Made by a program: the position numbers and the translations under genes. Of a stretch of DNA of 64,000 bases, positions 5,412 to 34,574 are shown piece by piece. Below the pieces are notes generated by a model, which saw nothing but the letters and a program-made list of their open reading frames with translations, did no database searches and was not told where the DNA came from. Each line of letters begins with the position of its first letter. The stretch's first letter is position 1. Source of the stretch: Hydrogenophilales bacterium CG12_big_fil_rev_8_21_14_0_65_61_21 (GTDB lineage Bacteria; Pseudomonadota; Gammaproteobacteria; Burkholderiales; Thiobacillaceae); NCBI GenBank assembly GCA_002782005.1, contig PFGT01000074.1:56-64055 (forward strand). The letters are read 5' to 3'.

Positions 5412-5498
5412 GGCGGTAGATAGGGTAGTTAAGCCAGCTTTCCAGCATAATAGCCGCTGGAGTTTGCGGCCAATCAACTTACATAACCCTGACGTCCT

Positions 5499-6164
5499 AT
5501 GCGCATTTTGATTGTCGAAGACGATGAAGTGCTGTCCGACAGCCTGATCCGGGCCATGGCCGCGGCGGGTTACGCCACTGACCACGTTGCCGACGGTGAG
5601 CAGGCGCTGGCCATGCTGCTCGATGGTTGCTACGACCTGGCCATCCTGGACCTCAGCCTGCCGCGCCTGGATGGTCTCATGGTGTTGCGCCAGTTGCGGG
5701 CCGCGAAAAAATCCCTGCCAGTGATCGTGCTGACCGCCCGCGACTCGGTCAACGACCGAGTGCTCGGCCTCGATTTCGGCGCCGACGATTATCTAACCAA
5801 ACCGTTCTCGCTGGTCGAACTGGAGGCCAGGGTGCGCGCCCTGCTGCGCCGGGGCCAAGGCGGCGGCGCAGCTACCCTGGTCTGCGGCAGCCTGGAATTC
5901 GACAGCGTTGGCCGCCGGGTCACCCTGGCCGGCGAACCGGCTGAGCTATCGGCCCGCGAACTGGCGGTGCTGGAGACGCTGTTGTTCCGGCAGGGCAAGG
6001 TGGTCAGCAAGGAGCAGTTGATCGAGAGTCTGTGCGCCTGGGGCGAGGAGGTGACGCCCAACGCCATTGAGGTCTACATGCACCGCCTGCGCAAGAAACT
6101 GGAGCCGGGCGGGGTCGACATTCGCACCGTGCGCGGCCTGGGCTATATGATGGACAAGGTATGA
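5499..6164 (+). CDS. OmpR/PhoB-family response regulator
   Basis: Receiver domain (MRILIVEDDE...ILDLSLPRLDG...LTAR) plus a winged-helix C-terminus (IEVYMHRLRKKLE...IRTVRGLGY). Confidence 0.9.
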   Translation: MRILIVEDDEVLSDSLIRAMAAAGYATDHVADGEQALAMLLDGCYDLAILDLSLPRLDGLMVLRQLRAAKKSLPVIVLTARDSVNDRVLGLDFGADDYLTKPFSLVELEARVRALLRRGQGGGAATLVCGSLEFDSVGRRVTLAGEPAELSARELAVLETLLFRQGKVVSKEQLIESLCAWGEEVTPNAIEVYMHRLRKKLEPGGVDIRTVRGLGYMMDKV

Positions 6165-11730: not shown

Positions 11731-12789
11731 TCAGGGCTCGATGTTAGGCGGCGTCGACTTATCCGACCAGTCTAATCGGCCAGCCATGGCCTGGGTCAGG
11801 CTGGCCCGGCCTGCGGCGTCGATGCGTAGTGCCTCGACGATACCCATTTTACTGGCCAGCGCCCGCCACCCGCCCGCGCTGCCGATGAAGATCGGCTTGC
11901 TGGCCACATCCGACAAGACGCCCGCATGGGGACCGTGGGCGATGATGGTGACCGCCTGGGTACCCTGCGCCGGCCAGCCGGTGCGCGGGTCGATCAGGTG
12001 GCAATAACGCACGCCGGCCAACTCGAAATAGCGCTGGTAATCGCCCGATGTGCCGATCGCCTCGCCGTCATGAAGTTCCAGTGTAGCAATCGCGCCGGCC
12101 TGGCGGGGATGCTGGATGCCAACCTTCCAGGGCCGGTTGTCATGCTGGCCCAGAGCGATGATGTTGCCACCGATATTGATGAGTGCGTTGTTCACCCCCT
12201 GGCTGCGCAGATAAGTTGCTGCCAGGTCGAGGGCATAGCCCTTGGCATAGCCGCCCAGGTCGATGCGTAGCGCCGGGTTGAGAGCGCGGAAATGAGTGCC
12301 TTCGATGACCACATCGCTCATCCGTGGATTGGCTTTTATCAGGCGGGCGATCTGGGCCGGGTCAGGCCGATGCGGCACGAAGGTGTCCGACTGGAAACCC
12401 CAAAGCCGGATCAGGTTGCCGATGGCCGGGTTGAACAGCCAGTCGCCCTGGGCCGAATAGCGGCTCGCATCGCGCAGTATGGCCGCCAGCTCGGGCGACA
12501 GTGTGCCGGTGACAGGCGACTTCGCCAGTTGCTCATTGAGTCGTTGCAGATCGCCCGGCTCCCAGGCATGTAGCTCATGGTGCAGGCGGTCGAATTCGGT
12601 TAACACATGGTCGACGACCTGGCGGGCCTTGGCCTCCGGTTCGCCGGCGATGGTAATGTCGACCAGGGTGCCGAAGACATAGGCCTGTTGCTTGTAGGGC
12701 GGCGGATGGCCGCAAGAGGCAAGTAACAGCATGGCCAGTGAAAAGTGAAAAGTGACGAAAAACCGCCACCAATGCGAACAAGTCATCAT
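11731..12789 (-). CDS. apbE: FAD:protein FMN transferase (ApbE), lipoprotein
   Basis: Lipobox LLASCG. ApbE-like core (GGYAKGYALD, GTSGDYQRYF, HLIDPRTGWP). Confidence 0.85.
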   Translation of the reverse strand: MMTCSHWWRFFVTFHFSLAMLLLASCGHPPPYKQQAYVFGTLVDITIAGEPEAKARQVVDHVLTEFDRLHHELHAWEPGDLQRLNEQLAKSPVTGTLSPELAAILRDASRYSAQGDWLFNPAIGNLIRLWGFQSDTFVPHRPDPAQIARLIKANPRMSDVVIEGTHFRALNPALRIDLGGYAKGYALDLAATYLRSQGVNNALINIGGNIIALGQHDNRPWKVGIQHPRQAGAIATLELHDGEAIGTSGDYQRYFELAGVRYCHLIDPRTGWPAQGTQAVTIIAHGPHAGVLSDVASKPIFIGSAGGWRALASKMGIVEALRIDAAGRASLTQAMAGRLDWSDKSTPPNIEP

Positions 12790-13733
12790 GCCCCGCTCAC
12801 CGTTTGTTCCAGCGCATCGATGAACCGGGCCGCGACATCGAACCCAGTCTGGTTGGCGATCTCGCGGAAACAGGTCGGGCTGGTGACGTTGATCTCGGTC
12901 AGCCAGTCGCCAATCACATCCAGACCGACCAGCAGCAGACCTTCGCTCTTCAACAGCGGACCAAGCGTCTTAGCGATCTCGCGGTCGCGCCCGGTCAGCG
13001 GCCGGGCCACCCCGGCGCCACCCGCCGCCAGATTGCCACGCGTCTCGCCCAGCGCTGGAATGCGGGCCAGGGCATAGGGCGCCGGCTCGCCGTCGATCAG
13101 CAGGATGCGTTTGTCGCCATCGGCAATCTCCGGGATGAAACGCTGGGCCATGATCTGGCGTGCGCCCAGGCCAGTCGCCGTTTCCAGAATGGCGCTCAGG
13201 TTGGGGTCGCCGACGCGCAATCTGAAGATACCGCTGCCGCCCATGGCATTGAGCGGCTTCACCACGATGTCGCCCTGCTCGGCCAGGAACGCCCTAACCT
13301 CGGCGCCCTGGCAGGTCACCAGGCTCGGCACGGTAAATTGCGGGAAGCGGGCGATGGCCAGCTTCTCGTTGCAGTCGCGCAGGGCACGCGGCCGGTTGAA
13401 CACCCGGGCGCCGTCCCGTTCCGCCATTTCCAGCAGATAGGTGGTGTTGAGATAGGCCTCGTCGAAGGGTGGGTCCTTGCGCATCAACACGGCATCGAAG
13501 CCAGCCAGCGGCCGCCATTGCGGCTCGGCAGCGGCGAACCAGTCGGGCGAACGGCCGGTCAGGGCGACGGCCCGGGTCAGACCCGATACCCGACCGTTAC
13601 GCCAGATCAGGTCGGCCGGCTCACAGGCCCAAACGGCATAGCCCCGCTGAACCGCCGCCATCATCATGGCGTAGGTCGAATCCTTGTAGACCTTGAAGCT
13701 GACCAGTGGGTCGGCGACGAACAGCAGTTTCAT
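12786..13733 (-). CDS. gshB: Glutathione synthetase
   Basis: Typical GshB N-terminus (MKLLFVADPL...KDSTYAMM) with an ATP-grasp C-terminus (GDKRILLIDGEP...GNLAAGG). ATGA-type overlaps with both neighbours. Confidence 0.9.
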   Translation of the reverse strand: MKLLFVADPLVSFKVYKDSTYAMMMAAVQRGYAVWACEPADLIWRNGRVSGLTRAVALTGRSPDWFAAAEPQWRPLAGFDAVLMRKDPPFDEAYLNTTYLLEMAERDGARVFNRPRALRDCNEKLAIARFPQFTVPSLVTCQGAEVRAFLAEQGDIVVKPLNAMGGSGIFRLRVGDPNLSAILETATGLGARQIMAQRFIPEIADGDKRILLIDGEPAPYALARIPALGETRGNLAAGGAGVARPLTGRDREIAKTLGPLLKSEGLLLVGLDVIGDWLTEINVTSPTCFREIANQTGFDVAARFIDALEQTVSGA

Positions 13734-15028
13734 GGCGCGGGCGAGTGGAACTCAGGGTCGGTGTCTTCCAGCTCGATCGCCGCCGCCAGGGCGGCCAGGC
13801 GGGCCAGCACGCCGTAGGTGTAAAAACGGTTGACCGGGGCATCCGGCCGTGCACTGGCATCTGGCAGGGTACAGGCCGCCTCGAAGGCCAGCGGCACGAA
13901 GCTCATACCGGGGGCATTCAGGTTCTCGTCCATGCCGCGGCTGGTGTGAACCCGATAAAAGCCGCCGATAACGAAGTGGTCGATCATATAGATCACCGGC
14001 TCGGCTACCGCGTCATCAATCGATTCGAAACTGTAGACGCCTTCCTGCACCAGTACCTGATCGACTGACAGGCCCTCCTTGACCACGGCCATCTTGTTGC
14101 GGGTCTTGCGATTGAGATCGCGCACATCGTCCACGCTGCGGGCGGTCAGGATGCCCATGCCGTAGGTGCCGGCGTCGGCCTTGACGATGACGAAGGGCGC
14201 CTTGTCGATGCCATATTCCTGGTACTTCAACTTAATCCGTTTGAGTAGCGCGTCGACATTCGAGGCTAGGCACTCCTCGCCGTCGCGGGTCTGGAAATCC
14301 ACCGCACCGCAGACCGCGTAATAGGGGTCGATCAGCCACGGATCGATGCCGACCACCTGGCCAAAGGCCTGCGCCAGATCGGCATACGCCCGGAAATGGT
14401 TCGACTTGCGCCGCACCGCCCAGCCGGCATGAAGCGGCGGCAACAGGGTCTGGTCCGGGTCGAGACCTTTCAGTATGTCCGGAATGCCGCCCGACAGATC
14501 GTTGTTGAGCAGCACCGCGCACGGGTTGAAACCCTCGACCATGAGCCGGTCGTCGACCCGTTTGACCGGTTCGAGTTTCAGCACGCCGCCGTCCGGCAAG
14601 TCCAGTATCAGCGGCTCCTTGAGGTCCGGGATCAAGCTGCCGATGCGCACCGTGAGGCCGGTCTTGCGGATGATCTCGGCCAGGGCCGCGACATTCTGCA
14701 AATAGAACAGGTTACGGGTGTGGTTCTCCGGAATAATCAAAAACCGCTGGGCCGAGGCGCACATCTTTTCCACCGTCACCTGAGCGGCCTGCACCGCCAG
14801 GGGCAGAAAGGCCGGGTTCAGGTTGTTGAAGCCGCCGGGGAACAGATTGGTATCGACCGGCGCCAGCTTGAAACCTGAATTGCGCAGGTCGACCGAGGTA
14901 TAAAACGGTGTGGCGTGTTCCTGCCATTGAGTGCGGAACCAGTGTTCAATGGCCGGTTGAGCGTCGATGACCCGTTTTTCCAGGTCCAGCAGAGGACCGG
15001 ACAGCGCCGTGGTAAGGTGAGGAACCAT
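13730..15028 (-). CDS. gshA: Glutamate--cysteine ligase, compact ~430-aa lineage (Acidithiobacillus ferrooxidans-type, as I recall TIGR02049)
   Basis: Translationally coupled to gshB. The N-terminal block FYTSVDLRNSGFKLAPVDTNLFPGGFNNL matches my memory of this GCL family. Family assignment is from memory, not from a search. Confidence 0.7.
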   Translation of the reverse strand: MVPHLTTALSGPLLDLEKRVIDAQPAIEHWFRTQWQEHATPFYTSVDLRNSGFKLAPVDTNLFPGGFNNLNPAFLPLAVQAAQVTVEKMCASAQRFLIIPENHTRNLFYLQNVAALAEIIRKTGLTVRIGSLIPDLKEPLILDLPDGGVLKLEPVKRVDDRLMVEGFNPCAVLLNNDLSGGIPDILKGLDPDQTLLPPLHAGWAVRRKSNHFRAYADLAQAFGQVVGIDPWLIDPYYAVCGAVDFQTRDGEECLASNVDALLKRIKLKYQEYGIDKAPFVIVKADAGTYGMGILTARSVDDVRDLNRKTRNKMAVVKEGLSVDQVLVQEGVYSFESIDDAVAEPVIYMIDHFVIGGFYRVHTSRGMDENLNAPGMSFVPLAFEAACTLPDASARPDAPVNRFYTYGVLARLAALAAAIELEDTDPEFHSPAP

Positions 15029-15711: not shown

Positions 15712-16692
15712 CTACTCGTCCTTGATGTCGCGGTTCAATAGCGCCGCGACCGCTTCCTTGGGCGGCTGCTCCTGTTCCAGGATGCCGCGCACGGCTTCGG
15801 CGATGGGCATGTCCACGTTCATTTCCCGCGCCAGTCTGGCGACTTCGCGCGCCGTGGTGACGCCTTCGGCGACGTGGCCGAGTTCGCGCAGGATACCTTC
15901 CAGGCTTTCGCCCTGGGCCAGTTTGAGTCCCACCTGGCGGTTGCGGGACAGGTCGCCGGTACAGGTCAGTATCAAGTCGCCCATGCCCGACAGGCCCATG
16001 AAGGTATCCAGCCGACCGCCCAGACGCAGGCCGAGCCGGGCGATCTCGGCCAGGCCACGGGTAATCAGCGCGGCCCGGGCATTGAGACCGAAGCCCAGGC
16101 CGTCGGAGATGCCGGCGGCGATGGCGATGACGTTCTTGACCGCGCCGCCGACCTCGACGCCGATCAGGTCGTTACTGGAGTAGAGACGCATCCGGAGACG
16201 GTGCAGATCGCGGGCGACCTGGCGGGCGAATTCGGCATCGAGCGAGGCCACGGTCAGCGCCACCGGCTGACCCGCCGCCACTTCCTGGGCAAAGCTGGGT
16301 CCGGACAGGGCCGCAGCGTCGGCATGTTCCGGCCATTCCTCGGCCAGGACCTCGTGGGGCAGCTTCATGGTGCCGGTCTCGAACCCCTTGCACAGCCAGA
16401 TCAACGGCGCGGCTGCGCCGTGACCACGCAACTGCCGTAACAGATCGCGATACCCCGAGGTTGGCACGGCGGCGATGAGATAGTCGGCGGCACGGATCGC
16501 GACCGATAAATCGGACTGGATGTCCAGTCCGGCCAACTGGGAGCCCGGCAGGTAGCGGTCGTTGGTCCCACTATGAACCATCCGCTCGGCCTGCTCGGGG
16601 TTGCGGGTCCACAATGTCACCTCGGCGCCGCCACGCAGTTGCATGGCCAGGGCTGTGCCCCAGGCGCCGGCGCCCAGAAGCGCTATTTTCAT
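15712..16692 (-). CDS. gpsA: NAD(P)H-dependent glycerol-3-phosphate dehydrogenase
   Basis: MKIALLGAGAWGTALA Rossmann N-terminus and GpsA core motifs. Canonical position after secB. Confidence 0.95.
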   Translation of the reverse strand: MKIALLGAGAWGTALAMQLRGGAEVTLWTRNPEQAERMVHSGTNDRYLPGSQLAGLDIQSDLSVAIRAADYLIAAVPTSGYRDLLRQLRGHGAAAPLIWLCKGFETGTMKLPHEVLAEEWPEHADAAALSGPSFAQEVAAGQPVALTVASLDAEFARQVARDLHRLRMRLYSSNDLIGVEVGGAVKNVIAIAAGISDGLGFGLNARAALITRGLAEIARLGLRLGGRLDTFMGLSGMGDLILTCTGDLSRNRQVGLKLAQGESLEGILRELGHVAEGVTTAREVARLAREMNVDMPIAEAVRGILEQEQPPKEAVAALLNRDIKDE

Positions 16693-16698
16693 GGCGAA

Positions 16699-17163
16699 TC
16701 AGTCGGTTTTTGGTTGAGCCTGAGCTTGAGCCTGCGCCCGTTGCTGTAGATAAATCGCCTCGAAATTGACCGGCTGTAGATAGAGGGCCGGGAAGCCGGC
16801 GCGGGCGGCGGCATCGGATACCGTCTCGCGCAGATAGGGAAACAGGATGTTCGGGCAGCCAACCGCCAGCATCGGCTCCAGCGCTTCCTGGGGCAGGTTC
16901 TGGACACGGAAGATGCCGGCCTGATGGGCCTCGACCAGGAAGGCGGTCTTGTCGCCGATCTTGGCATTGACCACGGCGGTCAATGTGGTCTGATAGATGC
17001 CTTCATCGACCGCCTCGCTTTGATTGCGCAACTGCACGTCGATCTGGGGCGGGGTTTGCTCCAGAAAGATTTGCGGGGCGTTGGGCACCTCGACCGACAG
17101 GTCTTTCAGGTAAATTTTTTCGATATTGAATCCAGGCGCGGCGGCTTGCTCTTGTTCGCTCAT
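16699..17163 (-). CDS. secB: Protein-export chaperone SecB
   Basis: FNIEKIYLKDLSVEVPNAP ... LFPYLRETVSD, plus an acidic/Q-rich tail. Confidence 0.95.
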   Translation of the reverse strand: MSEQEQAAAPGFNIEKIYLKDLSVEVPNAPQIFLEQTPPQIDVQLRNQSEAVDEGIYQTTLTAVVNAKIGDKTAFLVEAHQAGIFRVQNLPQEALEPMLAVGCPNILFPYLRETVSDAAARAGFPALYLQPVNFEAIYLQQRAQAQAQAQPKTD

Positions 17164-17208: not shown

Positions 17209-17631
17209 TTACAGACGCTGCCGAAGCCAGGCGGCCAACTGCGGCCCGGCCAGGGCGCCGGATACTCGGTCCAGTTCGCGACCGCCCTTGAATATCGCCA
17301 GGGTGGGGATACTACGGATGTTGTAGCGCGCGGCCAGACTCTGCTCGGCCTCGGTGTCGACCTTCACGAAGCGCACCTGCCCGCCATATTGACCGGCCAT
17401 CTGGCTAAAGGTGGGGGCGAACTGCTTGCATGGACCGCACCAGGGCGCCCAGAAATCGACCAGCACGGGCAAGCCGTCTCGGGTGATAAAACGCTCGAAT
17501 GTCGCAGCAGTCAGTACGATCGGTGCGGCGGGCAGTACGGCGCCGCCGCACTTGCCGCATTTCGGGTTATCGCCGAGGCGCTCGGCCGGGACCCGATTGA
17601 CGGCGCCACAGTTAGGGCAAACCAGTTCCAT
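17209..17631 (-). CDS. trxC: Thioredoxin 2 (N-terminal zinc finger plus thioredoxin fold)
   Basis: CPNCGAVN...CGKCG zinc-finger pair followed by the WAPWCGPCK active site. Confidence 0.9.
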   Translation of the reverse strand: MELVCPNCGAVNRVPAERLGDNPKCGKCGGAVLPAAPIVLTAATFERFITRDGLPVLVDFWAPWCGPCKQFAPTFSQMAGQYGGQVRFVKVDTEAEQSLAARYNIRSIPTLAIFKGGRELDRVSGALAGPQLAAWLRQRL

Positions 17632-17684: not shown

Positions 17685-17942
17685 TCAAGCCGCCAGCAAG
17701 GGGTCGAGACCACCGCCCGAGTCAAGCGCCGAGAGATCGTCGAAGCCGCCGACATGACGATCGCCGATGAAAATCTGCGGCACGGTGCGGCGGCCGGTAA
17801 TTTCGATCATCGCGTCGCGTTGCGCCGGATCAAGGTCGATGCGGATCTTTTCGATCTCGGTTACGCCCTTATTGCCGAGTAACCGCTCGGCCATCTGGCA
17901 GTAGGGGCAGGTTGCGGTGCAGTACATCTTGACGTGGGGCAT
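17685..17942 (-). CDS. grxC: Glutaredoxin 3
   Basis: 85 aa with CPYC active site (YCTATCPYCQMAERLL) and the TVPQIFI motif. Confidence 0.95.
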   Translation of the reverse strand: MPHVKMYCTATCPYCQMAERLLGNKGVTEIEKIRIDLDPAQRDAMIEITGRRTVPQIFIGDRHVGGFDDLSALDSGGGLDPLLAA

Positions 17943-17943
17943 C

Positions 17944-18360
17944 TCAGCGCTCCTTGGGGAAACCAGCCTGTTCCCAGGCCATGATGCCGCCGCTCAGGTT
18001 GCTGACATCCTCAAACCCGGCCTTGCGCAATATGCCGCAGGCATGACCGGAGCGGTTGCCGCTACGGCAGACCGCGACGATGGGCTTGCCCTTGTACTTT
18101 TCCAGATCGGCCAGGCGGCCTTTCAACTGACTGAGCGGGATGTGTTTGGATTTCGGGATGTGGCCATCGGCGAATTCCGAGCTCTCGCGCACATCGAGCA
18201 TCAGCGCATCGTTGTTGAACAGCCTGACCGCATCCTGGGGACCAACCTGCTTGACGCCGGACAGGCGGCCCATCAAGCTGCCGCCGACCAGCATGTAGCC
18301 GGATACCAGCATCAACAGGATCAGCCAGATGTTTTGTTGGGCGAATTCCATCCCATTCAC
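17944..18360 (-). CDS. Membrane-anchored rhodanese-domain protein (YibN-like)
   Basis: N-terminal TM helix (IWLILLMLVSGYMLVGG), rhodanese fold and active-site loop AVCRSGNRS. It occupies the yibN position upstream of grxC-secB-gpsA. Confidence 0.85.
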   Translation of the reverse strand: MNGMEFAQQNIWLILLMLVSGYMLVGGSLMGRLSGVKQVGPQDAVRLFNNDALMLDVRESSEFADGHIPKSKHIPLSQLKGRLADLEKYKGKPIVAVCRSGNRSGHACGILRKAGFEDVSNLSGGIMAWEQAGFPKER

Positions 18361-18392: not shown

Positions 18393-18620
18393 CTAGCGGC
18401 TGCAAGTGCCGTCGCCGGACTTGAGGCCCAGCTTCTTGAACAGCAATGCCGGCGGGCAGAAGCCGGTGATGCCGGACTGGAGCAGGTTGAGGCCGATGAA
18501 GACGGTAAACCATAGCCAGGACAGATGGCCGAGGTCGATCTGGCCGCTGAAATGGGCCAAGGCCAGGGACAACAGGATCATGACCCCTGCCATGATGCGG
18601 ATCGCGCGTTCGACGGTCAT
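18393..18620 (-). CDS. DUF2892 (YgaP-like transmembrane domain) small inner-membrane protein
   Basis: 75 aa with two TM helices (RIMAGVMILLSLALA ... LLQSGITGFCP). Strong SD (GAGGAGAAACACC-ATG) at the ATG at 18620, 23 nt after the RND stop. Confidence 0.75.
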   Translation of the reverse strand: MTVERAIRIMAGVMILLSLALAHFSGQIDLGHLSWLWFTVFIGLNLLQSGITGFCPPALLFKKLGLKSGDGTCSR

Positions 18621-18643
18621 TGGTGTTTCTCCTCGCAAAAGAA

Positions 18644-21600
18644 TTATGTGGTTTGTTGACGGCGCTGCCACAAGTAATAGACCAGCGGGATCACCACCAG
18701 GGTCAAGGCCGTGGATGCGAAGGTACCGAAAATCAGCGAAACCGCCAAGCCCCCGAAGACCGGATCGGTAATCATGATGGCCGAGCCCAGGATAATCGCC
18801 AGGGCGGTCAACAGGATGGGCCGAAAGCGCACCGCGCCGGCCTCGACGATGGCCGTTTCCAGGTCGTAGCCGCGCTTGCGGTAATCCAGTATGAAGTCAA
18901 TAAGCAGCAATGAGTTACGGACCACGATGCCGGCCAGGGCGATGACGCCGATCATCGAGGTGGCGGTGAAGGCCTGGCCGGTCGCCCAGTGGCCAGGGAA
19001 TACGCCGACCAGGGTGAGCGGGATCGCGCCCATGACGATAAACGGCAAGGCGAAAGACTTGTAGTAGCCAACCAGCACCAGGTAGATCAGGACGATGGCG
19101 ATGATGAAGGCAGAACCCAGGTCGCGGAACACGTCCAGGGTCAGGCGCATCTCGCCGCCCCAGAGCAGGGTGTTTTCCACTACATCCTTGGGGCTGGCCT
19201 GGGTAAAGCCGAGGTTGCCGGTAGCGAAGCTGACGCCATTGGCCAGCTTCTGACCGTCGAGCCGCTTGTCCAGAGCCAGCACGGCATAGACCGGACTGGA
19301 CTTAAGCAACTCGCCGCCGACCATGACCATGGGATGCTGGTCGCGGTCATAGATCGGCTTGGCGACGGTCACTCTGGTCACCGTGGCAATGGCCGACAGC
19401 GGTACCTGCTTGCCTTGCGGGTTGGCGATTCGCAGGCTGAGCAGGGTATCGGGCGTGGTGCGCAATTCACGCGGCAGACGCACCTGGATGTCCACCGGCT
19501 CGCGCGCGTCGAGCGCGTGAAGGGCGCCAATATTGAAGCCCGAGACGTAGTTGCGCAGCAGCTCGGCTACCTGACCCGGCGCCACGCCGGACAGCAGTGC
19601 CTTCTCGGTATCGACCTTGACGTCGTAGCCGTCGGCGTTGGCGGTGACCGAATCGTCAGCATTGGTCATGCCGTAGACGGTCTCGAAATCCTGCTCGACG
19701 ATGGCCGCCGCCGCGCGCAGCCGGTCATAGTCTGGGCCATACAGCTCAGCCAGCACCTGGGCCTGAACCGGCGGTCCGGGCGGCGTTTCATAGAGCTTTA
19801 TTTTGGCCGAGGGGAAACGCTTGCGCAGCGCCATCAACTGGCCATTCAACTCGTTGGCGATCTCATGCGATGAGCTGTCACGCTCGTGCTTGTTGACCAG
19901 ATTAACCCGAATCTGGGCCAGATTCTGGCCCTTCTTTATCAGGTCGCCACGCACCAGGGCGGCGAAATCGATCGGCGCGGTCATGCCGAGGAAGGTCTGG
20001 TAGTCGGTTATATGGGGATGCACAGCCAATATCCGGCCGACCTCGCGCGCTACCTGGTCGGTTGCCGCCAGGGCCGTACCGGCCGGCATATCGACCTCCA
20101 GCAGCATGGTGTTGGTGTTGTCGTTGGGCAGCATCTTCAGCTCGACGCCCAACATCGACAACGGCCCGTTCAAGCCCGCCGGACGGATGAACTGCCAGGC
20201 CGGCATCAGCATGGCGCCAAGTAGCAACGCCGACACGACCAGGAAGATCAGGTTACGTTTGGCCGGCGACGCGATCAGCGGCGTTAGAACCGCGACATAG
20301 GCACGATGCAGTGCGTCCTGTGCCGATGCGCCTTCATCTTCCAGGCTGGGCTTGCGCGCGGCCTCTTCGCGGGCCGCCTTCTTGGCCAGCCACAGGTTGG
20401 CGGCCCAGGGTACAACCATGTAGGCGATGATAATGGAGGCGATCATGGCGACCGGCACGTTGAACGGGATCGGCGCCATGAACGGCCCCATCATGCCGGT
20501 CACAAAGGCCATGGGGATGAAGGCCAGGATCACGGCGACGGTGGCAACGTTGGTCGGGTTGCCGATCTCGTTGGTGGCCTCGATCAGCACGCTGCCGAAG
20601 TCCTTGCCACCCGTGCCGTGATGCAGATGGCGGTGGATGTTCTCGATTACCACGATGGCCGCGTCGACCAGCAAGCCGAGCGACAGGATCAGCGCGAACA
20701 GGGTGATGCGGTTGATCGTCTGACCGAAGGCCAGGCCGATTGCCAGGACCACGAACAGGATCAACGGCACCGTCAGGGTGACGATGCCGGCCTCGCGCCA
20801 ACCGAGGAAGATGACCAGGATGACCACCACCGAGCCGATGGCCAGCCCCAAGTGCGAGACCAGCTCGTTGACCGCCTCGTTGGCCTTCTCGCCGTCGTTG
20901 CGGGTCACGGCGACCTCGATGCCGGCCGGGATGGCCTGTTTTTTCAGGTCCGCCAGCTTGGCCAGTACCGCGTCGGCGACAACCACGGCATTGGCGCCGG
21001 CCTTCTTGGCGATGGCCAGGGTCACGGCCGGGTTCTCACCATGGCCGGACTTGCCCAGGGCCTGGCCCCAGGCGAAGCGCGTGGTCTCTTCCAGCTCGCC
21101 CGGCCCGTCTTCGATCTGCGCCACATCCTTCAGGTAGACCGGACGGCCCATCTGGGACACGCCCACCACGATCTTGCCAACTTCGTCGGCCGAGCCGAGA
21201 AACCCGGACAGCCGCAATGGCCGGGCTTGGTTATCCCGCACCAGATCGCCCAACGGCGCCGAGACATTGCTGCCGCGCAGCATTTTGTCGACCTTGTCCA
21301 GGGTCAGGCCGGCCGCGTCCAGGCGCTGGGCATCGAGCCAGACGTTGACCATGTGCTTACGGCCGCCGACCACCTGAGTGAACGAGACGCCTGGGACATT
21401 GCGCAACTGTTCCAGGATACGGTTGGCCACCTCGCGCAAGGTGTAATCGTCATAGGCTGATGCCGCCAGAGTCAGGGTCATGATCGGCACGTCGTCGACG
21501 TTGATCGGCTTGACCAGCGGCTGCGTGGCGCCCGGCGGGATGCGATCGATGTTTTGCATCAACTGGTTGTATAGCTTGACCAGGCTGTCTTCCTGCTTTT

Positions 21601-21931
21601 GTCCGACCTTGAACTGAATGGTCACGACGCCAAAGTCGTTGGTCGCATAGCCGAAGGTGTGATCGACCCCGGACTGGGCGTTCATGATCGCTTCCAGCGG
21701 CTTGACGATCAGGTTCTCCACCTCGGCCGGCGTTGCGCCCGGCTTGGCGACGATGATGTTGGCCGCCGGCACGACGATTTGCGGGTTGTATTCGCGCGGC
21801 GTAACCATCAGCGCCAGGGCGCCGGTCAGGGTCACGGCGACGATGGTCAGCAGGGTCAGCTTGGAGGTCAGAAAGGCTCTGGCCAGCTTGCCGGCGATGT
21901 TCATCGGGCTTTCGTGTCCGGTGTCGCTCAT
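18644..21931 (-). CDS. RND efflux transporter, inner-membrane permease (AcrB/AcrD/AcrF superfamily)
   Basis: 1095 aa with the 12-TM, two-large-periplasmic-loop architecture. Follows the MFP gene with a 3-nt gap. Confidence 0.9.
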   Translation of the reverse strand: MSDTGHESPMNIAGKLARAFLTSKLTLLTIVAVTLTGALALMVTPREYNPQIVVPAANIIVAKPGATPAEVENLIVKPLEAIMNAQSGVDHTFGYATNDFGVVTIQFKVGQKQEDSLVKLYNQLMQNIDRIPPGATQPLVKPINVDDVPIMTLTLAASAYDDYTLREVANRILEQLRNVPGVSFTQVVGGRKHMVNVWLDAQRLDAAGLTLDKVDKMLRGSNVSAPLGDLVRDNQARPLRLSGFLGSADEVGKIVVGVSQMGRPVYLKDVAQIEDGPGELEETTRFAWGQALGKSGHGENPAVTLAIAKKAGANAVVVADAVLAKLADLKKQAIPAGIEVAVTRNDGEKANEAVNELVSHLGLAIGSVVVILVIFLGWREAGIVTLTVPLILFVVLAIGLAFGQTINRITLFALILSLGLLVDAAIVVIENIHRHLHHGTGGKDFGSVLIEATNEIGNPTNVATVAVILAFIPMAFVTGMMGPFMAPIPFNVPVAMIASIIIAYMVVPWAANLWLAKKAAREEAARKPSLEDEGASAQDALHRAYVAVLTPLIASPAKRNLIFLVVSALLLGAMLMPAWQFIRPAGLNGPLSMLGVELKMLPNDNTNTMLLEVDMPAGTALAATDQVAREVGRILAVHPHITDYQTFLGMTAPIDFAALVRGDLIKKGQNLAQIRVNLVNKHERDSSSHEIANELNGQLMALRKRFPSAKIKLYETPPGPPVQAQVLAELYGPDYDRLRAAAAIVEQDFETVYGMTNADDSVTANADGYDVKVDTEKALLSGVAPGQVAELLRNYVSGFNIGALHALDAREPVDIQVRLPRELRTTPDTLLSLRIANPQGKQVPLSAIATVTRVTVAKPIYDRDQHPMVMVGGELLKSSPVYAVLALDKRLDGQKLANGVSFATGNLGFTQASPKDVVENTLLWGGEMRLTLDVFRDLGSAFIIAIVLIYLVLVGYYKSFALPFIVMGAIPLTLVGVFPGHWATGQAFTATSMIGVIALAGIVVRNSLLLIDFILDYRKRGYDLETAIVEAGAVRFRPILLTALAIILGSAIMITDPVFGGLAVSLIFGTFASTALTLVVIPLVYYLWQRRQQTT

Positions 21932-21934
21932 CGT

Positions 21935-23008
21935 TCAGCCCCGCACCAGGTCGCCGTTATTGACCGCCGAGGCATTGCGGGTGACCACCCGATCGCCGGC
22001 GGCCAACCCCGAGAGTATTTCGACCTGACCGTGGTCGGTCCGGCCGCTACGGACCATGCGATAGTCGGCCACGCCCTTGGCGTCCAGCACGAATACGCCG
22101 GTGATGCCGGCGCGATTCAAGACCGCCTCCTGGGGGACTTGCAGGACGGCCTGCCGACCGGTTGGAAACAGCACCCGGGCGAAGGCGCCGCTACGCAGAC
22201 TTGGCGCGCTCACGTCTAGTTTGACCAGATGGGTATGTGCGACCGGGTCGGCAGCAGGTGACAGACGAGCAACCGCGCCCTCGACCGGCTGCACCTGACC
22301 GTCCACCTCGATCTTGATCCTGGCGCCCAGCTTCAGGCCGGAATAGATCGCCTCGGACACTGCGGTCTGGACCTGCAAATGGGCCTGATTTTCCACCAGC
22401 AGGACCGGGTGGCCGGGGGCGGCGATGTCGCCCTGGTTGGCGAATTTCTGTACCACCACGCCGTTGATCGGCGAGACGACCACGGCATAGCGCAACTGGC
22501 CATGGGCGGTTTGCAGGCCGGCCTTGGCCTGGGCGGCGCGGGACGCAGCGATGTCATAGTTCAGCTTCATCTTTTCATATTGCTGACGGCTGACCACTTC
22601 GTCCTTGTACAGGGCATCGAAACGGGCATAGTCGGCCTTGGCGTCCTGCATGGCCTTTTCGGCCTGGTCGAGGCCCAGCCGCGCTTGCGCGACGCCACCC
22701 TCGATGTCCATCGGATCGATGGTGAACAGGCGCTGGCCGGCCTTGACCGACTGGCCTTCGGCCACCGCGATATTCTTGATGTAGCCCATCAGGCGCGAGG
22801 CCACCTGAACCGATTCCTGGGCCACCACGGCGCCCGGCAGCGGGCTGTAGATCACGCTCTCGACCGGTTGTAAGGTCACAACACCGGCATTTACTGTGCG
22901 CGCAGCAGCGGCCGCCGGCGCTTTTTCATGGCTGCCGCCGCAACCGGTCAGGCTCAGGGCAACGGCAAGTAGGATGGGGTTGAGCTTGTTCATCGGTTCA
23001 TTCCTCAC
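21935..23008 (-). CDS. RND efflux periplasmic adaptor (MFP), lipoprotein
   Basis: Lipobox LSLTGCGG. Coiled-coil hairpin plus lipoyl/beta-barrel segments typical of the HlyD/AcrA family. Confidence 0.9.
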   Translation of the reverse strand: MRNEPMNKLNPILLAVALSLTGCGGSHEKAPAAAAARTVNAGVVTLQPVESVIYSPLPGAVVAQESVQVASRLMGYIKNIAVAEGQSVKAGQRLFTIDPMDIEGGVAQARLGLDQAEKAMQDAKADYARFDALYKDEVVSRQQYEKMKLNYDIAASRAAQAKAGLQTAHGQLRYAVVVSPINGVVVQKFANQGDIAAPGHPVLLVENQAHLQVQTAVSEAIYSGLKLGARIKIEVDGQVQPVEGAVARLSPAADPVAHTHLVKLDVSAPSLRSGAFARVLFPTGRQAVLQVPQEAVLNRAGITGVFVLDAKGVADYRMVRSGRTDHGQVEILSGLAAGDRVVTRNASAVNNGDLVRG

Positions 23009-24396
23009 AATTGATCGGCGTCCAGTACACCCACGGCCAGTTTCAATGCCGCGCGCTGCACTGCCTGATCGTAGTCAGCGGCAACCAGGTCGGCGCGGGC
23101 CTTGTCCAGTTGAGCCTGGGCGGCAAGCAGCTCGATCAGCGTACCCAGGCCATTCTCATAGCGTTTCTTGACCAGCCGCTGCGCCTCGCTCGCCTCCGCG
23201 ACGGCGAGCGTCCGGGCCTTGACCTTCTCCTCCGCTTCCTGAGCCCGACGTTTAGCATCGCCCACTTTGTAGGCGATGCCGTTGCTGGCCTGATCGAGCT
23301 TGGCGACCGCCTCCAGGCGCTGGGCCTCGGCCCGATCCACCGCGGCCCGACTGCCGCCGCCGTCGAAGGCGGTCCACGACAACACACCCGCCGCAGTATA
23401 CGAACTGGAATCGAGGCCTAATGTCTTGCCGTTCCAGTCCTGGCGCAGCATGACGTTGAATTGCGGCAGTTTGCCGGCGCGCGCGGCGGCTACGGCGGCG
23501 GCGGCGCCATCGGCCTGATTACGCAAGGCTTGCAAACCCTGGTGATTAGCCAGGGCAGCCTGACGCAGGCTGGCGACATCGCCCTCCAGCGTGACCGGCA
23601 TGACCGGCGCGCCGACATCGAGCGGCTCAGCCAGCGGCTTGCCCAGCAGCAGATGGAGTTGGTCGAGCGCGGCGGCTTCGGCGTTGCCGGCCGAAACCGA
23701 TTTCAGTTTCATGTCCGCCAGATTGACCTCGGCGGACAACAGATCACTTTTCACCGCCATGCCCTGTTTAAAAAGCTGGGTGCTGATCCGCACAAACTCC
23801 TCGGCGGCAGCCCGCGCCTCACCGGCGACCTGAACGTAGGCCCGGGCGGTATGCACCCCCTGGTAGGCCATCAACACCTGCTTGACCAGTTGCTGGCGAG
23901 CCAGCCTATCCCCGGCCTGGGCCGCCTTGACATAAGACTGGGCCTGTTTGACATAGTCGGCCACCATGCCGCCGTTGTAGACCGGGATGAGCAGTTCGGC
24001 CCGCGGGTTGAAGTTGGTCACCGCGTCGGGGTGGTTGAGGTCGCGCGGAGCGACGCTCAGAATATTCGGATTGGTCGAATCGAAATCGCGAAAGCCGAAG
24101 TCGCCGAACGTGGCGCCGCGCTGCCCCAGTTTTAGGCCGAAGGCATTCAATGCGTCGTTGCTTTGGGTGGCGGTCACGGACAAATTCAATTTCGGCCAGT
24201 AATTGGCCTGCGCCTGACGCAGCCCCGCCTCGGCCTGTTTGACCTGGGCCTGGGCCATGGCCAGGTCGGGGTTTTGCGTCAGGGCGATGCCCACGCACTG
24301 CTTGAAATCCAGGGTTTCCGAGCAAGCGCCCGTTGTGGTCAAGGCAAGCGCAATGGCCAGGACTATGCGGCGCGGCATAAACAAAACCATATCCAT
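23005..24396 (-). CDS. TolC-family outer-membrane efflux protein
   Basis: 463 aa with a signal peptide and duplicated OEP repeats (e.g. PKLNLSVTATQSND...). First gene of the C-B-A-ordered operon, with a 4-nt overlap onto the MFP gene. Confidence 0.9.
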   Translation of the reverse strand: MDMVLFMPRRIVLAIALALTTTGACSETLDFKQCVGIALTQNPDLAMAQAQVKQAEAGLRQAQANYWPKLNLSVTATQSNDALNAFGLKLGQRGATFGDFGFRDFDSTNPNILSVAPRDLNHPDAVTNFNPRAELLIPVYNGGMVADYVKQAQSYVKAAQAGDRLARQQLVKQVLMAYQGVHTARAYVQVAGEARAAAEEFVRISTQLFKQGMAVKSDLLSAEVNLADMKLKSVSAGNAEAAALDQLHLLLGKPLAEPLDVGAPVMPVTLEGDVASLRQAALANHQGLQALRNQADGAAAAVAAARAGKLPQFNVMLRQDWNGKTLGLDSSSYTAAGVLSWTAFDGGGSRAAVDRAEAQRLEAVAKLDQASNGIAYKVGDAKRRAQEAEEKVKARTLAVAEASEAQRLVKKRYENGLGTLIELLAAQAQLDKARADLVAADYDQAVQRAALKLAVGVLDADQL

Positions 24397-24437
24397 GCTC
24401 CTTTGGGACTGTCTCCCGGTCCTGAACCCAGGCCCGG

Positions 24438-24459
24438 AATATTAGCGAATGCTAATATT
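24438..24459. promoter_or_regulatory. Perfect 9-4-9 inverted repeat AATATTAGC-GAAT-GCTAATATT (candidate ArsR-family operator)
   Basis: Read directly from the sequence. It lies between the ArsR-family gene and tolC and overlaps the predicted -10 of the efflux operon promoter. Confidence 0.65.
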
Positions 24460-24483
24460 ACACATTAGAAAAACTTATGTCAA
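24455..24483 (-). promoter_or_regulatory. Sigma70-type promoter of the tolC-MFP-RND operon
   Basis: Minus strand reads TTGACA (24483-24478), 17 nt spacer, TAATAT (24460-24455). It sits about 60 nt upstream of the tolC start. Confidence 0.55.
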
Positions 24484-24526
24484 TATAAGCCCCGCCGAGC
24501 AAGATACTAGAATTGCCTGTTTTTCG

Positions 24527-24853
24527 CTATTTGGTGAAACCGCAGAAAACGTCCCGCATGATGCTGATGAGCTGCAAGGTGCGGGTATCCGCCACGCGGT
24601 AGAACACGCGGTTGGCATCCTTGCGGGTGCGCAACACGCCTTTGTCGCGCAGGATGGCAAGGTGCTGGGAGATATTGCTTTGAGAGGTGCCGACACTATC
24701 CACGATGCCCTGGACGCTGACTTCATTGCCGCCCAGCACGCAGAGTATCTTGAGTCGAAGCGGATGCGACATCGCCTTCAGCGCACGCGAGGCCTGTTCG
24801 ATATGTTCGTCGTTTTCGATAAGCGCCGCGATGGGCTCCAAGGTCGTAATCAA
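24527..24853 (-). CDS. ArsR/SmtB-family transcriptional regulator, two-Cys YgaV/BigR/SqrR-like
   Basis: LKAMSHPLRLKILCVL...SQSNISQHLAILRDKGVL winged HTH. It has only two Cys, C38 in helix alpha2 and C104 near the C-terminus (RDVFCG). Confidence 0.85.
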   Translation of the reverse strand: MITTLEPIAALIENDEHIEQASRALKAMSHPLRLKILCVLGGNEVSVQGIVDSVGTSQSNISQHLAILRDKGVLRTRKDANRVFYRVADTRTLQLISIMRDVFCGFTK

Positions 24854-24965
24854 GTGTCTGTCTCCAAAACTGCAACGGATGCCGACGCCAATTCTATGAC
24901 GTATTCAAATATACTAAAATACTGGACGTGTAAAATGATAGCGTTTTCTAGGATAAAATCTCCTT

Positions 24966-26531
24966 ATGCCACCTAGTGTCCTGCCTGTACTACTCATTAT
25001 TCTGGACGGCTTCGGTTATCGCGAAGAGACCACCGACAACGCCGTCGCCGCTGCGCATAAGCCCAATTGGGACCGGCTTTGGGCGACTTGTCCCCATACC
25101 TTCATTCATGCCTCGGAGTCCGCCGTGGGCCTGCCCAAGGGCCAGATGGGCAATTCCGAGGTCGGCCATTTGAACATCGGCGCCGGTCGCGTCGTCTACC
25201 AGGAATTCACCCGCATCGACCGTTCGATCGAAGCCGGCCATTTCTTTGAGAACTACGTCCTGGTCGACTTGATCGACAAGGTCAAGGCCAACAATGCCAC
25301 TCTGCATGTGTTCGGCCTGCTTTCTGACGGCGGCGTCCATAGCCACGAGCGGCACATCCACGCTATGCTGGACATGGCGGTGCATAGCGGCGTGGAAAAG
25401 ATTTCGGTACACGCATTCCTGGATGGCCGCGATACGCCGCCGAAGTGCGCCGATGTTTACCTCGAACGCCTACAGGCCAAGCTGGATGCGCTCGGCAAGG
25501 GTTGCATCGCCACGATCAGTGGCCGCTACTTTGGCATGGACCGTGACAAGCGCTGGCCGCGGGTCCAGGTCGCCTATGACCTGATTACCCTGGGCGAGGC
25601 GGAATACCGCGCCCCAACCGCGCTGGAGGGACTGGCCATGGCCTACGCACGGGGTGAGACCGACGAGTTCGTCAAACCGACTGTAATTGCCGCCGCCGGC
25701 CAGCCGGCGCCGCGCATGGTGGATGGCGACGCCGTGGTCTTCATGAACTTTCGTTCCGATCGCGCCCGGCAATTGACCAAGGCCTTCCTGCAACCGGACT
25801 TCGATGGCTTCAAGCGCAAATACGTGCCCAAGCTTTCCAATTACTGCACGCTGACCCACTACGCGGATGAATTCAAGGTGCCGGTCGCCTTTCCGCCCGA
25901 ACGTATCCGCAACGGTTTCGGCGAATACATAGCCAGCCTCGGCTTGCGCCAATTACGCATCGCCGAGACCGAAAAGTTTCCCCACGTCACCTACTTCTTC
26001 AATGGCGGCGAGGAAACCGTCTACCCTGGCGAGGACCGCGTCCTGGTGCAATCGCCGCCGGTCGCCCACTACGACCAGCAACCGGAGATGAGCGCCTACG
26101 AGGTCACCGACAAGCTGGTCGCAGCGATCGAAAGTCGTAAATACGATGCCATCATTTGCAATTTCGCCAATGCCGACATGGTCGGTCATACCGGCAATTT
26201 CACCGCCGCCAGACAGGCCATCGAGGCCCTGGATGTCTGTCTGGGCAGGGTGTTGGAGGCCATGAAATCGACCGCTGGCGAGGTTCTCATAACCGCCGAC
26301 CACGGCAATGCCGAATGCATGCTGGACCTGGCCAATAAGCAGCCGCATACCGCCCACACGACCAATCTGGTGCCCTTGCTCTATGTCGGCCGCCCGGCGC
26401 ATCTGGCTGAGACCGGCGCCCTGGAGGACATCACGCCCACGCTGCTGGCGATGATGGGCCTGGCAAAACCGCGCGAGATGACTGGCCATCCACTGGTGCG
26501 CTTTGATGCGCCCGCCCATCCCGAGCCTTAA
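24966..26531 (+). CDS. gpmI: 2,3-bisphosphoglycerate-independent phosphoglycerate mutase
   Basis: LIILDGFGYRE...GQMGNSEVGHLNIGAGR...ADHGNAE motifs. Confidence 0.95.
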   Translation: MPPSVLPVLLIILDGFGYREETTDNAVAAAHKPNWDRLWATCPHTFIHASESAVGLPKGQMGNSEVGHLNIGAGRVVYQEFTRIDRSIEAGHFFENYVLVDLIDKVKANNATLHVFGLLSDGGVHSHERHIHAMLDMAVHSGVEKISVHAFLDGRDTPPKCADVYLERLQAKLDALGKGCIATISGRYFGMDRDKRWPRVQVAYDLITLGEAEYRAPTALEGLAMAYARGETDEFVKPTVIAAAGQPAPRMVDGDAVVFMNFRSDRARQLTKAFLQPDFDGFKRKYVPKLSNYCTLTHYADEFKVPVAFPPERIRNGFGEYIASLGLRQLRIAETEKFPHVTYFFNGGEETVYPGEDRVLVQSPPVAHYDQQPEMSAYEVTDKLVAAIESRKYDAIICNFANADMVGHTGNFTAARQAIEALDVCLGRVLEAMKSTAGEVLITADHGNAECMLDLANKQPHTAHTTNLVPLLYVGRPAHLAETGALEDITPTLLAMMGLAKPREMTGHPLVRFDAPAHPEP

Positions 26532-27705
26532 GGTCTGTGCCCTATTGCTGCTATGGCTGCTGCCGGGTATCGCCAACCCGGCCGGCGACGGCAAGCAACA
26601 GGAATTGGAGGATCTGCGCGGCCGCATCGCCAAACTCAAGGGCGAGGTGGAACGTGCCTCGGTCGACCGCTCGGAGGCCGCCGACGGGCTGCGCAACTCA
26701 GAACGCAAGATTTCCGACATCAACCGCGCCCTGATCGAGCTACAAAAGAAGGAACAGCGGCTGGGCCAATCCCTGGGCAAACTGGCTCAAGAACACCGCG
26801 CGACCAAGGCGCAATTGCACGCCGAGCGACAGCAACTGGCGGCCCTGCTTCGGCAACGCTATCGCCAGGGCAGCGACGACGCAACCCATCTGGCATTGAG
26901 CGGCCGCGACCCCGGCGAGATACAGCGCGACCTGGAGTATTACACCTACATCGGCCGGGCGAGGGCGAGATTGATCCGTGCCCACAACGCCTCGCTAGGT
27001 CGCCTGACGGCGGTAGAGAGCGAGACCCGGAGCCGAAGGTCCGACTTGGAACAGATCAAGCAAAACCAACTCACTCAACGCACAACCCTGGACAGGGAAA
27101 AACAAGTGCGTCAGGCCACCTATAACCAGTTGTCCGATCAGATACGCCAACAGCGTAAACAGATCGACAGTCTGGCTCGGGATGAGTCCCGGCTGAGCCG
27201 GTTGGTCGAACGTCTGCAACGTCTATCCGAGGCCAGAAAAACCACCAAGCCGCGTGAACCACGGGCTGGTAAAACAATCACTAACGTAGCCGATGCTAGC
27301 CTGGCAGGGCTCCGGTTCGCCGCGCTCAAGGGCAAGCTGGCGCTACCCGTGGCGGGTGAATTGTTGGCCCGCTTCGGCCAGGCCAGGGCCGGTGGCGGGC
27401 CAGCCTGGAAGGGCTTGTTCATCCGAACCAAGGCCGGCCAACCTGTCCGGACGGTGGCCAGCGGCGCGGTGGTATTCGCCGATTGGCTGAGGGGTTTCGG
27501 CAACCTGCTGATCGTCGACCATGGCGGCGGTTACCTCAGTCTGTACAGCAATAATGAAAGTCTGTATAAACAGGCGGGAGACACTGTCCACGCGGGCGAT
27601 GTCGTCGCCGCGACCGGCGACACCGGCGGCCAGGAAGAAACTGGCCTGTATTTCGAACTGCGCCGCCAAGGGCAACCATTCGACCCCATGAGTTGGGTCC
27701 GGTGA
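26503..27705 (+). CDS. envC: Murein hydrolase activator EnvC (coiled coil plus LytM/M23 domain)
   Basis: Long Q/E/R/L coiled coil followed by a degenerate M23 domain (GLFIRTKAGQPVRTVASGAVVFADWLRGFGNLLIVDHGGGYLSLY). Canonical position after gpmI. The start is uncertain because of a 29-nt overlap with gpmI. Confidence 0.85.
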   Translation: MMRPPIPSLKVCALLLLWLLPGIANPAGDGKQQELEDLRGRIAKLKGEVERASVDRSEAADGLRNSERKISDINRALIELQKKEQRLGQSLGKLAQEHRATKAQLHAERQQLAALLRQRYRQGSDDATHLALSGRDPGEIQRDLEYYTYIGRARARLIRAHNASLGRLTAVESETRSRRSDLEQIKQNQLTQRTTLDREKQVRQATYNQLSDQIRQQRKQIDSLARDESRLSRLVERLQRLSEARKTTKPREPRAGKTITNVADASLAGLRFAALKGKLALPVAGELLARFGQARAGGGPAWKGLFIRTKAGQPVRTVASGAVVFADWLRGFGNLLIVDHGGGYLSLYSNNESLYKQAGDTVHAGDVVAATGDTGGQEETGLYFELRRQGQPFDPMSWVR

Positions 27706-34497: not shown

Positions 34498-34574
34498 TGG
34501 TGGTGATGGGCGGAATCGAACCGCCGACCTGAGGGTTATGAATCCTCCGCTCTAACCGACTGAGCTACATCACC
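34498..34574 (-). tRNA. tRNA-Met (anticodon CAT; elongator Met versus lysidine-modified Ile2 not distinguishable by eye)
   Basis: Minus strand reads GGTGATG-TA-GCTC-AGTCGGTT-AGAGC-G-GAGGA-TTCATAA-CCCTC-AGGTC-GGCGG-TTCGATT-CCGCC-CATCACC-A-CCA. Full cloverleaf, encoded CCA, T-loop TTCGATT. Confidence 0.95.

Follow-up and report, generated by a model that had tools for sequence, protein, structure and literature searches.

A two-cysteine ArsR-family regulator and the putative operator of a mobile RND efflux cassette in the yibN-grxC-secB-gpsA cluster of sulfur-oxidiser lineages

Persulfide-sensing repressors have been well studied and the resistance-nodulation-division (RND) pumps that neighbour them have not, yet the tightest natural operator of one such repressor, SqrR, is the promoter of one such pump. 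What, then, joins sensor to pump? The question is posed by a locus within a 64,000-nucleotide stretch of contig PFGT01000074.1 (positions 56 to 64,055, forward strand) of Hydrogenophilales bacterium CG12_big_fil_rev_8_21_14_0_65_61_21, referred to here as the window, in which the gene for a two-cysteine ArsR-family regulator is followed on the same strand by genes for an outer-membrane factor (OMF), a periplasmic adaptor of the membrane fusion protein (MFP) family, an RND permease and a small DUF2892 protein, ahead of a rhodanese gene, grxC and trxC. Is the pump controlled by the regulator beside it, and if so, what would be the signal? The answer favoured here, with moderate confidence, is that a two-Cys repressor of the persulfide-sensing group controls an inserted, mobile pump cassette and would be released from it by sulfane sulfur. 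The locus offers a clean and testable case in that (i) a 22-bp operator sits on a near-consensus promoter and is shared by two interchangeable pump types, and (ii) there is a conserved two-Cys DUF2892 partner together with a restriction to sulfur-oxidising lineages.

The genes, strands, junctions, cysteine positions and 22-bp palindrome of this locus had been described in a first-pass annotation, and all were recovered at the same coordinates by open reading frame (ORF) calling on the window, with gene assignments checked against Pfam and NCBIfam (Table 1). Fundamental to the interpretation is the regulator, which that annotation had placed in a two-Cys BigR/SqrR/YgaV type. It has exactly two cysteines, C38 in helix alpha2 and C104 in helix alpha5, and its winged-helix ArsR fold is recognised by PF01022 (43 bits) and by NF033788 (82.6 bits against a cut-off of 55). 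Among proteins of the PDB, phmmer matches it to BigR (1.2e-17), YgaV (7e-17), HlyU (7e-16) and SqrR (5e-13), and in these alignments C38 and C104 coincide with the Cys pairs of all four; the pair is also invariant in an eight-sequence alignment in which the regulator is 28-40% identical to them. The proposed equivalence of the cysteines is thereby borne out, as is the resemblance to E. coli YgaV, which amounts to 41% identity over 87 aa. The claim that a metal site is lacking stands as well, given that inspection of the sequence finds no alpha3 CXC motif, because there is no Cys besides C38 and C104, no alpha5 His/Asp site, and no His past residue 64 or in the C-terminal helix. An alpha2/alpha5 Cys pair is what defines cluster 4, the persulfide sensors, in a sequence similarity network (SSN) of the ArsR superfamily (PMC10054925), and the same pair likewise marks ArsR persulfide sensors in a second study (PMC12423496). 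By sequence comparison, then, the regulator truly belongs with the alpha2/alpha5 two-Cys ArsR proteins of the BigR/YgaV/HlyU/SqrR group.

Orthologues of the regulator, 72-90% identical, are present in 80 genomes, and their loci differ in what follows. In 29 of them, from Rhodocyclales, Burkholderiales and others, there is no pump and rhodanese-grxC-secB-gpsA come directly after the regulator, while three more without a pump have a PglL-like ligase between regulator and rhodanese. The OMF-MFP-RND arrangement of the window (type A) is found at 16 loci, and another 22 have an MFP-RND pair without OMF (type B), in which the RND protein is 40% identical to that of type A; the other 10 are rearranged. 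A DUF2892 gene lies directly after the RND gene at 12/12 type-A and 13/16 type-B loci. Three type-B loci, the gammaproteobacterial loci and R. capsulatus do without it, so it is not needed everywhere that the pump occurs. The pump with DUF2892 is a mobile cassette inserted between the regulator and the yibN-like rhodanese, in two non-orthologous versions, and its carriers belong to sulfur-oxidiser lineages such as Thiobacillaceae, Gallionellaceae, Sulfuriferula and Hydrogenophilales. The space between regulator and rhodanese is a hot spot that takes up other cargo too, namely a PglL/Wzy_C O-antigen-ligase-like membrane protein of 590-620 aa, a nuclease of the Uma2 family, or a Y1 transposase gene of the IS200 type paired with a small HTH_3 gene; such inserts are seen after the regulator (L049, L052, L059), after DUF2892 (L004, L067) and at L010, L031 and L088 (2498-4391). 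The unrelated genes that follow the regulator at L020, L027, L037, L045 and others seem to reflect rearrangement and offer no clue to function. The presence of trxC between grxC and secB also follows the pump, with 17/24 pump loci against 0/32 pump-less loci.

A promoter of the sigma-70 type lies between the regulator and OMF genes, and its -10 box is overlapped by the palindrome. The palindrome had been singled out in the first-pass annotation, and it is indeed perfect and unique: AATATTAGC-N4-GCTAATATT has a single copy in the window, where 0.01 would be expected by chance. Written with longer arms it reads ATATTAG-N6-CTAATAT. A survey of 1.275 Mb from the 80 related loci found 23 exact copies of ATTAG-N6-CTAAT, of which 22 lie 53-300 nt after the regulator and before the pump; the 23rd precedes a type-B pump that has been displaced by ~9 kb and adjoins a gene for an Rrf2-family regulator (L027, about 18484-20273; also L045). 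The operator is present with at most one mismatch at 33/42 pump promoters, and a further 6/42, in a Sulfuriferula/Thiobacillus subgroup, have the variant ATTA(G/A)-N14(AT-rich)-CTAAT. Across these 39/42 promoters the arms are constant and the centre is free. The same is seen between the window and L088, where the arms are kept and the centre differs, though the RND proteins are 94% identical. In Halothiobacillaceae (gammaproteobacteria, Thiofaba) a 75%-identical OMF-MFP-RND set of type A lies elsewhere, after mrdA-rodA-mltB-rlpA and before a LysR gene, and has kept the operator (L086 5448-5463; L087 about 5409-5424), from which it follows that the operator belongs to the pump cassette. Comparative support for the sequence as an operator is therefore good. 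The regulator had been annotated as heading one operon with the pump, a view that does not hold, since there is a separate promoter with an operator before the OMF gene and since at type-B loci strong GC-hairpin/T-run terminators come directly after the regulator gene.

Which protein would bind this operator? The candidate is very likely the adjacent regulator, given two likenesses to known sites. The arms ATATTAG/CTAATAT are those of the mapped HlyU site at exsBA of V. parahaemolyticus, a site that has been dissected experimentally and has a 14-nt AT-rich centre, and in its 4-N8-4 geometry the operator matches the SqrR box, ATTC-N8-GAAT. The recognition helix of the regulator, TSQSNISQHLAILRDKG, is HlyU-like in alignment and is the same at type-A, type-B and pump-less loci, and the protein as a whole is conserved far above its neighbours (at L057, for instance, its identity is 77%, where the rhodanese has 47% and GpsA 53%). 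From these features we infer binding by this regulator; the inducer and the substrate considered below are proposals.

Since the operator overlaps the -10 box, repression is implied. In the mechanism proposed here, the reduced regulator dimer would bind ATATTAG-N6-CTAATAT, occlude the -10 box and so repress the OMF-MFP-RND-DUF2892 cassette. Sulfane sulfur, as persulfide or polysulfide, would then bridge C38 and C104 and cause the repressor to leave the DNA, whereupon the pump and DUF2892 would be expressed and read-through may also raise the levels of rhodanese, GrxC and TrxC. The TrxC and GrxC encoded downstream may in turn help to reset the sensor; TrxC is reported to reduce the polysulfide link of SqrR (PMC10044876).

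Upstream of the regulator itself lies a different conserved element, rich in AT. It has a counterpart at pump-less loci, AGTATTCTATAATATT, at the equivalent place about 40-100 nt upstream of the regulator, and both GTATTTTAGTATATTTGAATAC and AGTATTCTATAATATT are distinct from the pump operator. The element at 24901-24922 is probably the regulator's promoter, and possibly a degenerate autoregulatory site or promoter and site both. An ATTAG palindrome that could serve as an autoregulatory site was sought upstream of the regulator and at pump-less loci and none was found, and a search of the literature for the sequence of the BigR box returned nothing usable.

Table 1. Genes and DNA elements of the locus, with positions in the window
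Feature	Position	Strand	Details
Two-Cys ArsR-family regulator, BigR/YgaV/HlyU/SqrR group	24527-24853	-	108 aa; TTG start, GGAG 7 nt upstream; HTH_5
Sigma-70-type pump promoter	24455-24483	-	TTGACA-17-TAATAT, 10/12; between regulator and OMF genes
Putative operator, perfect palindrome	24438-24459		AATATTAGC-GAAT-GCTAATATT; core ATTAG-N6-CTAAT; overlaps -10 box
TolC-like outer-membrane factor (OMF)	23005-24396	-	OEP, PF02321 183 bits
Periplasmic adaptor (MFP)	21935-23008	-	Lipoprotein-type signal sequence (LTGC); HlyD_D23/RND_mfp, TIGR01730 209 bits
RND permease	18644-21931	-	ACR_tran; Cys-free; Arg at AcrB K940 position; D-A in TM4
DUF2892/YgaP-like two-TM protein	18393-18620	-	75 aa from ATG; YgaP-like_TM
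Membrane-anchored rhodanese, YibN orthologue	17944-18360	-	Rhodanese domain; CRSGNRS active-site loop
grxC, glutaredoxin 3	17685-17942	-	Part of conserved backbone; Pfam/NCBIfam
trxC, thioredoxin 2	17209-17631	-	Pfam/NCBIfam
secB and gpsA	15712-17163	-	End of conserved yibN-grxC-secB-gpsA block; Pfam/NCBIfam and E. coli comparison
AT-rich element upstream of regulator	24901-24922	-	GTATTTTAGTATATTTGAATAC; conserved in type-A relatives
gpmI-envC, divergent	24966-27705	+	Other arm of conserved backbone; ORFs and E. coli comparison

What kind of pump is it that the cassette carries? A placement among the heavy-metal efflux (HME), hydrophobe/amphiphile efflux (HAE) and other RND proteins had been called for, and family scores and residues fit neither a typical HAE1 nor a typical HME pump. 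The RND protein falls well short of all curated family cut-offs, those of HAE1 (TIGR00915, 305 against 940) and HME (TIGR00914, CusA/CzcA, 272 against 701) included, and it is 22% identical to AcrB and 24% to CusA. The HAE1 proton relay D407-D408/K940 is replaced by D-A in transmembrane helix 4 (TM4) with Arg in the place of AcrB K940, and the CusA Met triad M573, M623 and M672 by E, L and A. The best solved relatives (OqxB-like, MdtB, MexK) score about 200-230 bits, and the RND protein encoded beside sqrR in R. capsulatus scores 564 bits at 35% identity. The type-A, type-B and R. capsulatus proteins are mutually 35-43% identical, all Cys-free with Arg at the K940 position and all without the CusA Met triad; TM4 has D-A in type A, and D-D in type B and R. 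capsulatus. No Cys occurs in any examined RND protein of this clade, each of more than 1060 aa, including those of the window, L081 (2548-5766) and type B. By these measures the RND proteins form a clade of their own, outside both classical HAE1 and HME, and the window protein belongs with the SqrR-linked MFP-RND type (the rcc01451 type, for which there is no curated family), being homologous to it and having an operator upstream.

As to function, the most plausible guess is that the pump clears the periplasm or membrane of a compound that contains sulfur or reacts with thiols. A more specific proposal concerns the Cys-free clade as a whole, whose members lie beside two-Cys ArsR sensors in alpha-, beta- and gammaproteobacteria. 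These pumps would be devoted to the export of sulfane sulfur, be it polysulfide, elemental-sulfur-like species or organic persulfide, from the periplasm or membrane of sulfur oxidisers, with the two-Cys DUF2892 protein and the membrane rhodanese passing sulfur along in a relay by which the pump is fed or protected. This is a doubtful extension, and if true it would amount to a previously unrecognised route of reactive-sulfur disposal or of extracellular sulfur deposition. More generally, knowledge of the substrate would reveal how reactive sulfur crosses the envelope of Gram-negative bacteria, and might have a bearing on the antibiotic tolerance that is linked to sulfide.

The cassette sits within a conserved framework. 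The order in E. coli is trmL | cysE-gpsA-secB-grxC-yibN | gpmM-envC, and the window has the same backbone with trmL beyond gpsA. Each backbone protein of the window is a reciprocal match of its E. coli counterpart, with identities of 33% for YibN, 54% for GrxC, 40% for SecB, 44% for GpsA, 57% for GpmM, 30% for EnvC and 52% for TrmL. As the rhodanese-grxC-secB-gpsA genes match the conserved yibN block, they are housekeeping genes and not cargo of the pump; what emerges is a betaproteobacterial yibN-grxC-secB-gpsA cluster headed by a very highly conserved regulator of redox-sensor type. The regulator stop and the OMF start codon are 130 nt apart. The OMF and MFP genes overlap by 4 nt, and gaps of 3 nt and 23 nt separate MFP from RND and RND from DUF2892, respectively. 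The genes 3' of the pump continue on the same strand with gaps of 1-53 nt, with no strong terminator within the window cluster.

The DUF2892 protein had been equated with the membrane domain of YgaP, whose gene in E. coli does adjoin ygaV, and the two genes of the window with a YgaP that has been split. The first part is supported by similarity across the transmembrane region (33%, E 1.7e-4). The second is not, given that the rhodanese is the YibN orthologue and matches YibN, at 62 bits, better than YgaP, at 48 bits; DUF2892 and rhodanese are separate genes with DUF2892 first, and not the single polypeptide of the YgaP type. A fusion of the two that seemed to exist in L005 and L006 was an artefact of alignment, in which MAFFT had dropped the stop symbol, and a TAA stop, a ribosome-binding site and a TTG start lie between the genes. 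All DUF2892 homologues begin with MTVER and have two Cys: one lies where TM2 ends, within an F/L-C-P motif (FCP in the window), and the other, which is absent from E. coli YgaP, in a short tail at the C terminus. No mention of DUF2892 was found among the top-ranked papers of a limited literature search. Just upstream of its gene, at the 3' end of the RND gene, is a weak promoter-like site, GTGGCA-17-CATAAT (9/12; 18643-18671, minus strand), which could allow DUF2892, rhodanese and grxC to be expressed independently of the pump.

Several points weigh against a persulfide-responsive repressor dedicated to this pump. The regulator stays below the BigR equivalog cut-off (NF040642, 77.4 bits against 155) and is, judged by such scores, a separate subfamily and not BigR sensu stricto. 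At three of the 42 pump loci (L003, L016, L036) no operator was found. The Halothiobacillaceae pump loci have the operator with no adjacent ArsR gene and no DUF2892, an arrangement that points to horizontal transfer of the cassette together with its operator. The 29 pump-less loci have an identical recognition helix and no ATTAG palindrome near the regulator, so that the regulator either acts on further targets or recognises its own promoter in another way; it probably has a wider regulon in which the pump is one member where present. The insertion hot spot, moreover, makes adjacency alone weak evidence. There is also the matter of the signal. YgaV is reported to respond to organotin, and this, together with a response to peroxide in cells of V. 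cholerae, means that the inducing signal may be broader than sulfane sulfur. The peroxide response is a fall in HlyU-dependent transcription and is indirect (PMC10054925). Hence the regulator could be a general sensor of thiol stress (oxidants, electrophiles, quinones, organometals) and the pump a general detoxification exporter, an account that we regard as unlikely although it agrees with that fall in transcription, with the organotin response reported for YgaV and with the ancestral partners of the regulator, which are general thiol-redox genes (rhodanese and grxC, with gshA-gshB nearby). In vitro, however, HlyU and SqrR react solely with persulfides, and the Cys geometry here is that of SSN cluster 4, unlike that of the alpha3 dithiol sensors of H2O2 (PMC10054925). 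The limitation of the cassette to sulfur-oxidiser lineages likewise speaks for the narrower signal.

If adjacency is weak evidence, might it be wholly incidental, with the cassette lying in a hot spot, the palindrome bound by another regulator, and the ArsR protein controlling only its own gene and the yibN cluster? The unrelated cargo at the same insertion spot, the gammaproteobacterial operator copies without an adjacent ArsR gene and the lack of the palindrome at pump-less loci would all suit such an arrangement, but it is made improbable by the occurrence of two non-orthologous pump types (RND 40% identical) at the same spot with the same operator, by the identity of the arms to a proven HlyU site where the regulator has an HlyU-like helix, and by the precedent of SqrR. 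A single long transcript that starts at the regulator promoter, takes in the pump and continues into rhodanese-grxC-trxC-secB-gpsA, leaving the pump without separate control, would accord with the shared strand, the short gaps and the lack of a strong terminator. It is very improbable all the same in view of the near-consensus internal promoter with its operator before the OMF gene, the strong terminators after the regulator at type-B loci and the further promoter-like site at 18643-18671, and secB and gpsA, as essential housekeeping genes, are unlikely to rely on a promoter that is under repression. Least credible of all is an HME-type heavy-metal efflux system under a metal-sensing ArsR/SmtB repressor, a reading that is largely refuted. 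There are weak matches of the MFP to the CzcB/CusB type, and the D-A pattern of TM4 is as in CusA, but the absence of CXC or alpha5 metal ligands from the regulator, and of the Met triad from an RND protein with a sub-threshold HME score and low identity to CusA, led to its rejection. A repressor of the persulfide-sensing group acting on an inserted pump cassette is thus retained as the favoured explanation.

Some features of the wider neighbourhood may be recorded here. Just past trmL and gpsA are gshB and a 'ferrooxidans-type' gshA (TIGR02049, 622 bits) at 12786-15028 on the minus strand, in an order also found in L088; with gshB, gshA, grxC, trxC and the rhodanese so close together, the wider neighbourhood is a thiol-redox island. 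The only Rfam matches within the window are a 6S RNA gene (37897-38077, plus strand, 59.5 bits) and one tRNA gene (34501-34574, minus strand). Three long ORFs on the minus strand (3522-5585, 8469-9632 and 44136-46184) have no NCBIfam match at E<=1e-10, and that at 3522-5585 may be a wrong-strand ORF.

How far is the pairing of such a sensor with an RND pump already known? The first-pass annotation had considered it undescribed, which cannot be upheld. The 26-bp rcc01451 operator, the standard high-affinity probe for SqrR, maps immediately upstream of the MFP-RND pair beside sqrR in R. capsulatus, and a neighbourhood survey of 2025 reports that two-Cys ArsR regulators often adjoin RND pumps, listing R. 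capsulatus SqrR and regulators of Halorhodospira, Rhodoplanes, Hyphomicrobium, Acidithiobacillus thiooxidans and others (PMC12423496). With this precedent and this survey the concept of a sensor-pump pair is not new. A Thiobacillus denitrificans regulator, which may or may not be the orthologue of that in the window, is scored as 'alone' in the table of that survey. PigS/pmpABC was considered as another RND precedent and was rejected, as the literature shows PmpAB to be transporters of the YeeE family. For RND pumps beside two-Cys ArsR sensors, no reported substrate or phenotype was found in the literature examined. The annotation was therefore sound in its observation and family assignment and overstated in its operon reading and its claim of novelty: the pairing is already known in kind, and what the window adds is its type-A OMF-MFP-RND-DUF2892 form within the yibN cluster.

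Of the known systems, SqrR/rcc01451 of R. capsulatus is the one in which a two-Cys ArsR persulfide sensor likewise has a 4-N8-4 palindrome immediately upstream of an MFP-RND operon, with an RND protein of the same clade (35% identity, Arg at the K940 position, no Cys). It differs in that the regulator gene is adjacent to but convergent with the pump, there is neither OMF nor DUF2892, the locus is not in a yibN cluster, the box is ATTC-N8-GAAT where here it is ATTA-N8-TAAT, and the regulators are about 34% identical. With HlyU of Vibrio the regulator shares a recognition helix of the form SQSxxSQHLAxLRxxG, the Cys pair and the exsBA arms, and the N14 spacing recurs in the Sulfuriferula/Thiobacillus subgroup; HlyU, however, is an anti-silencer or activator of toxin genes, whereas the target here is an efflux pump. 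BigR of Xylella, Agrobacterium and Acinetobacter, the best match in PDB and NCBIfam, shares the Cys pair and acts as a repressor at an AT-rich operator within a promoter, but its targets are a persulfide dioxygenase-rhodanese (Blh) and the PmpAB transporters of the YeeE type rather than an RND pump.

The remaining comparisons are with E. coli. In the YgaV-YgaP system the regulator is again related and rhodanese and DUF2892 are again encoded nearby, but YgaP is one rhodanese-DUF2892 protein, whereas the window has two genes in the reverse order, of which the rhodanese is the orthologue of YibN. It is with the yibN-grxC-secB-gpsA/gpmM-envC cluster that the locus shares its backbone, gene order and strands. 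To this the betaproteobacterial version adds an ArsR regulator upstream of the rhodanese, and the lineage of the window adds the pump, DUF2892 and trxC.

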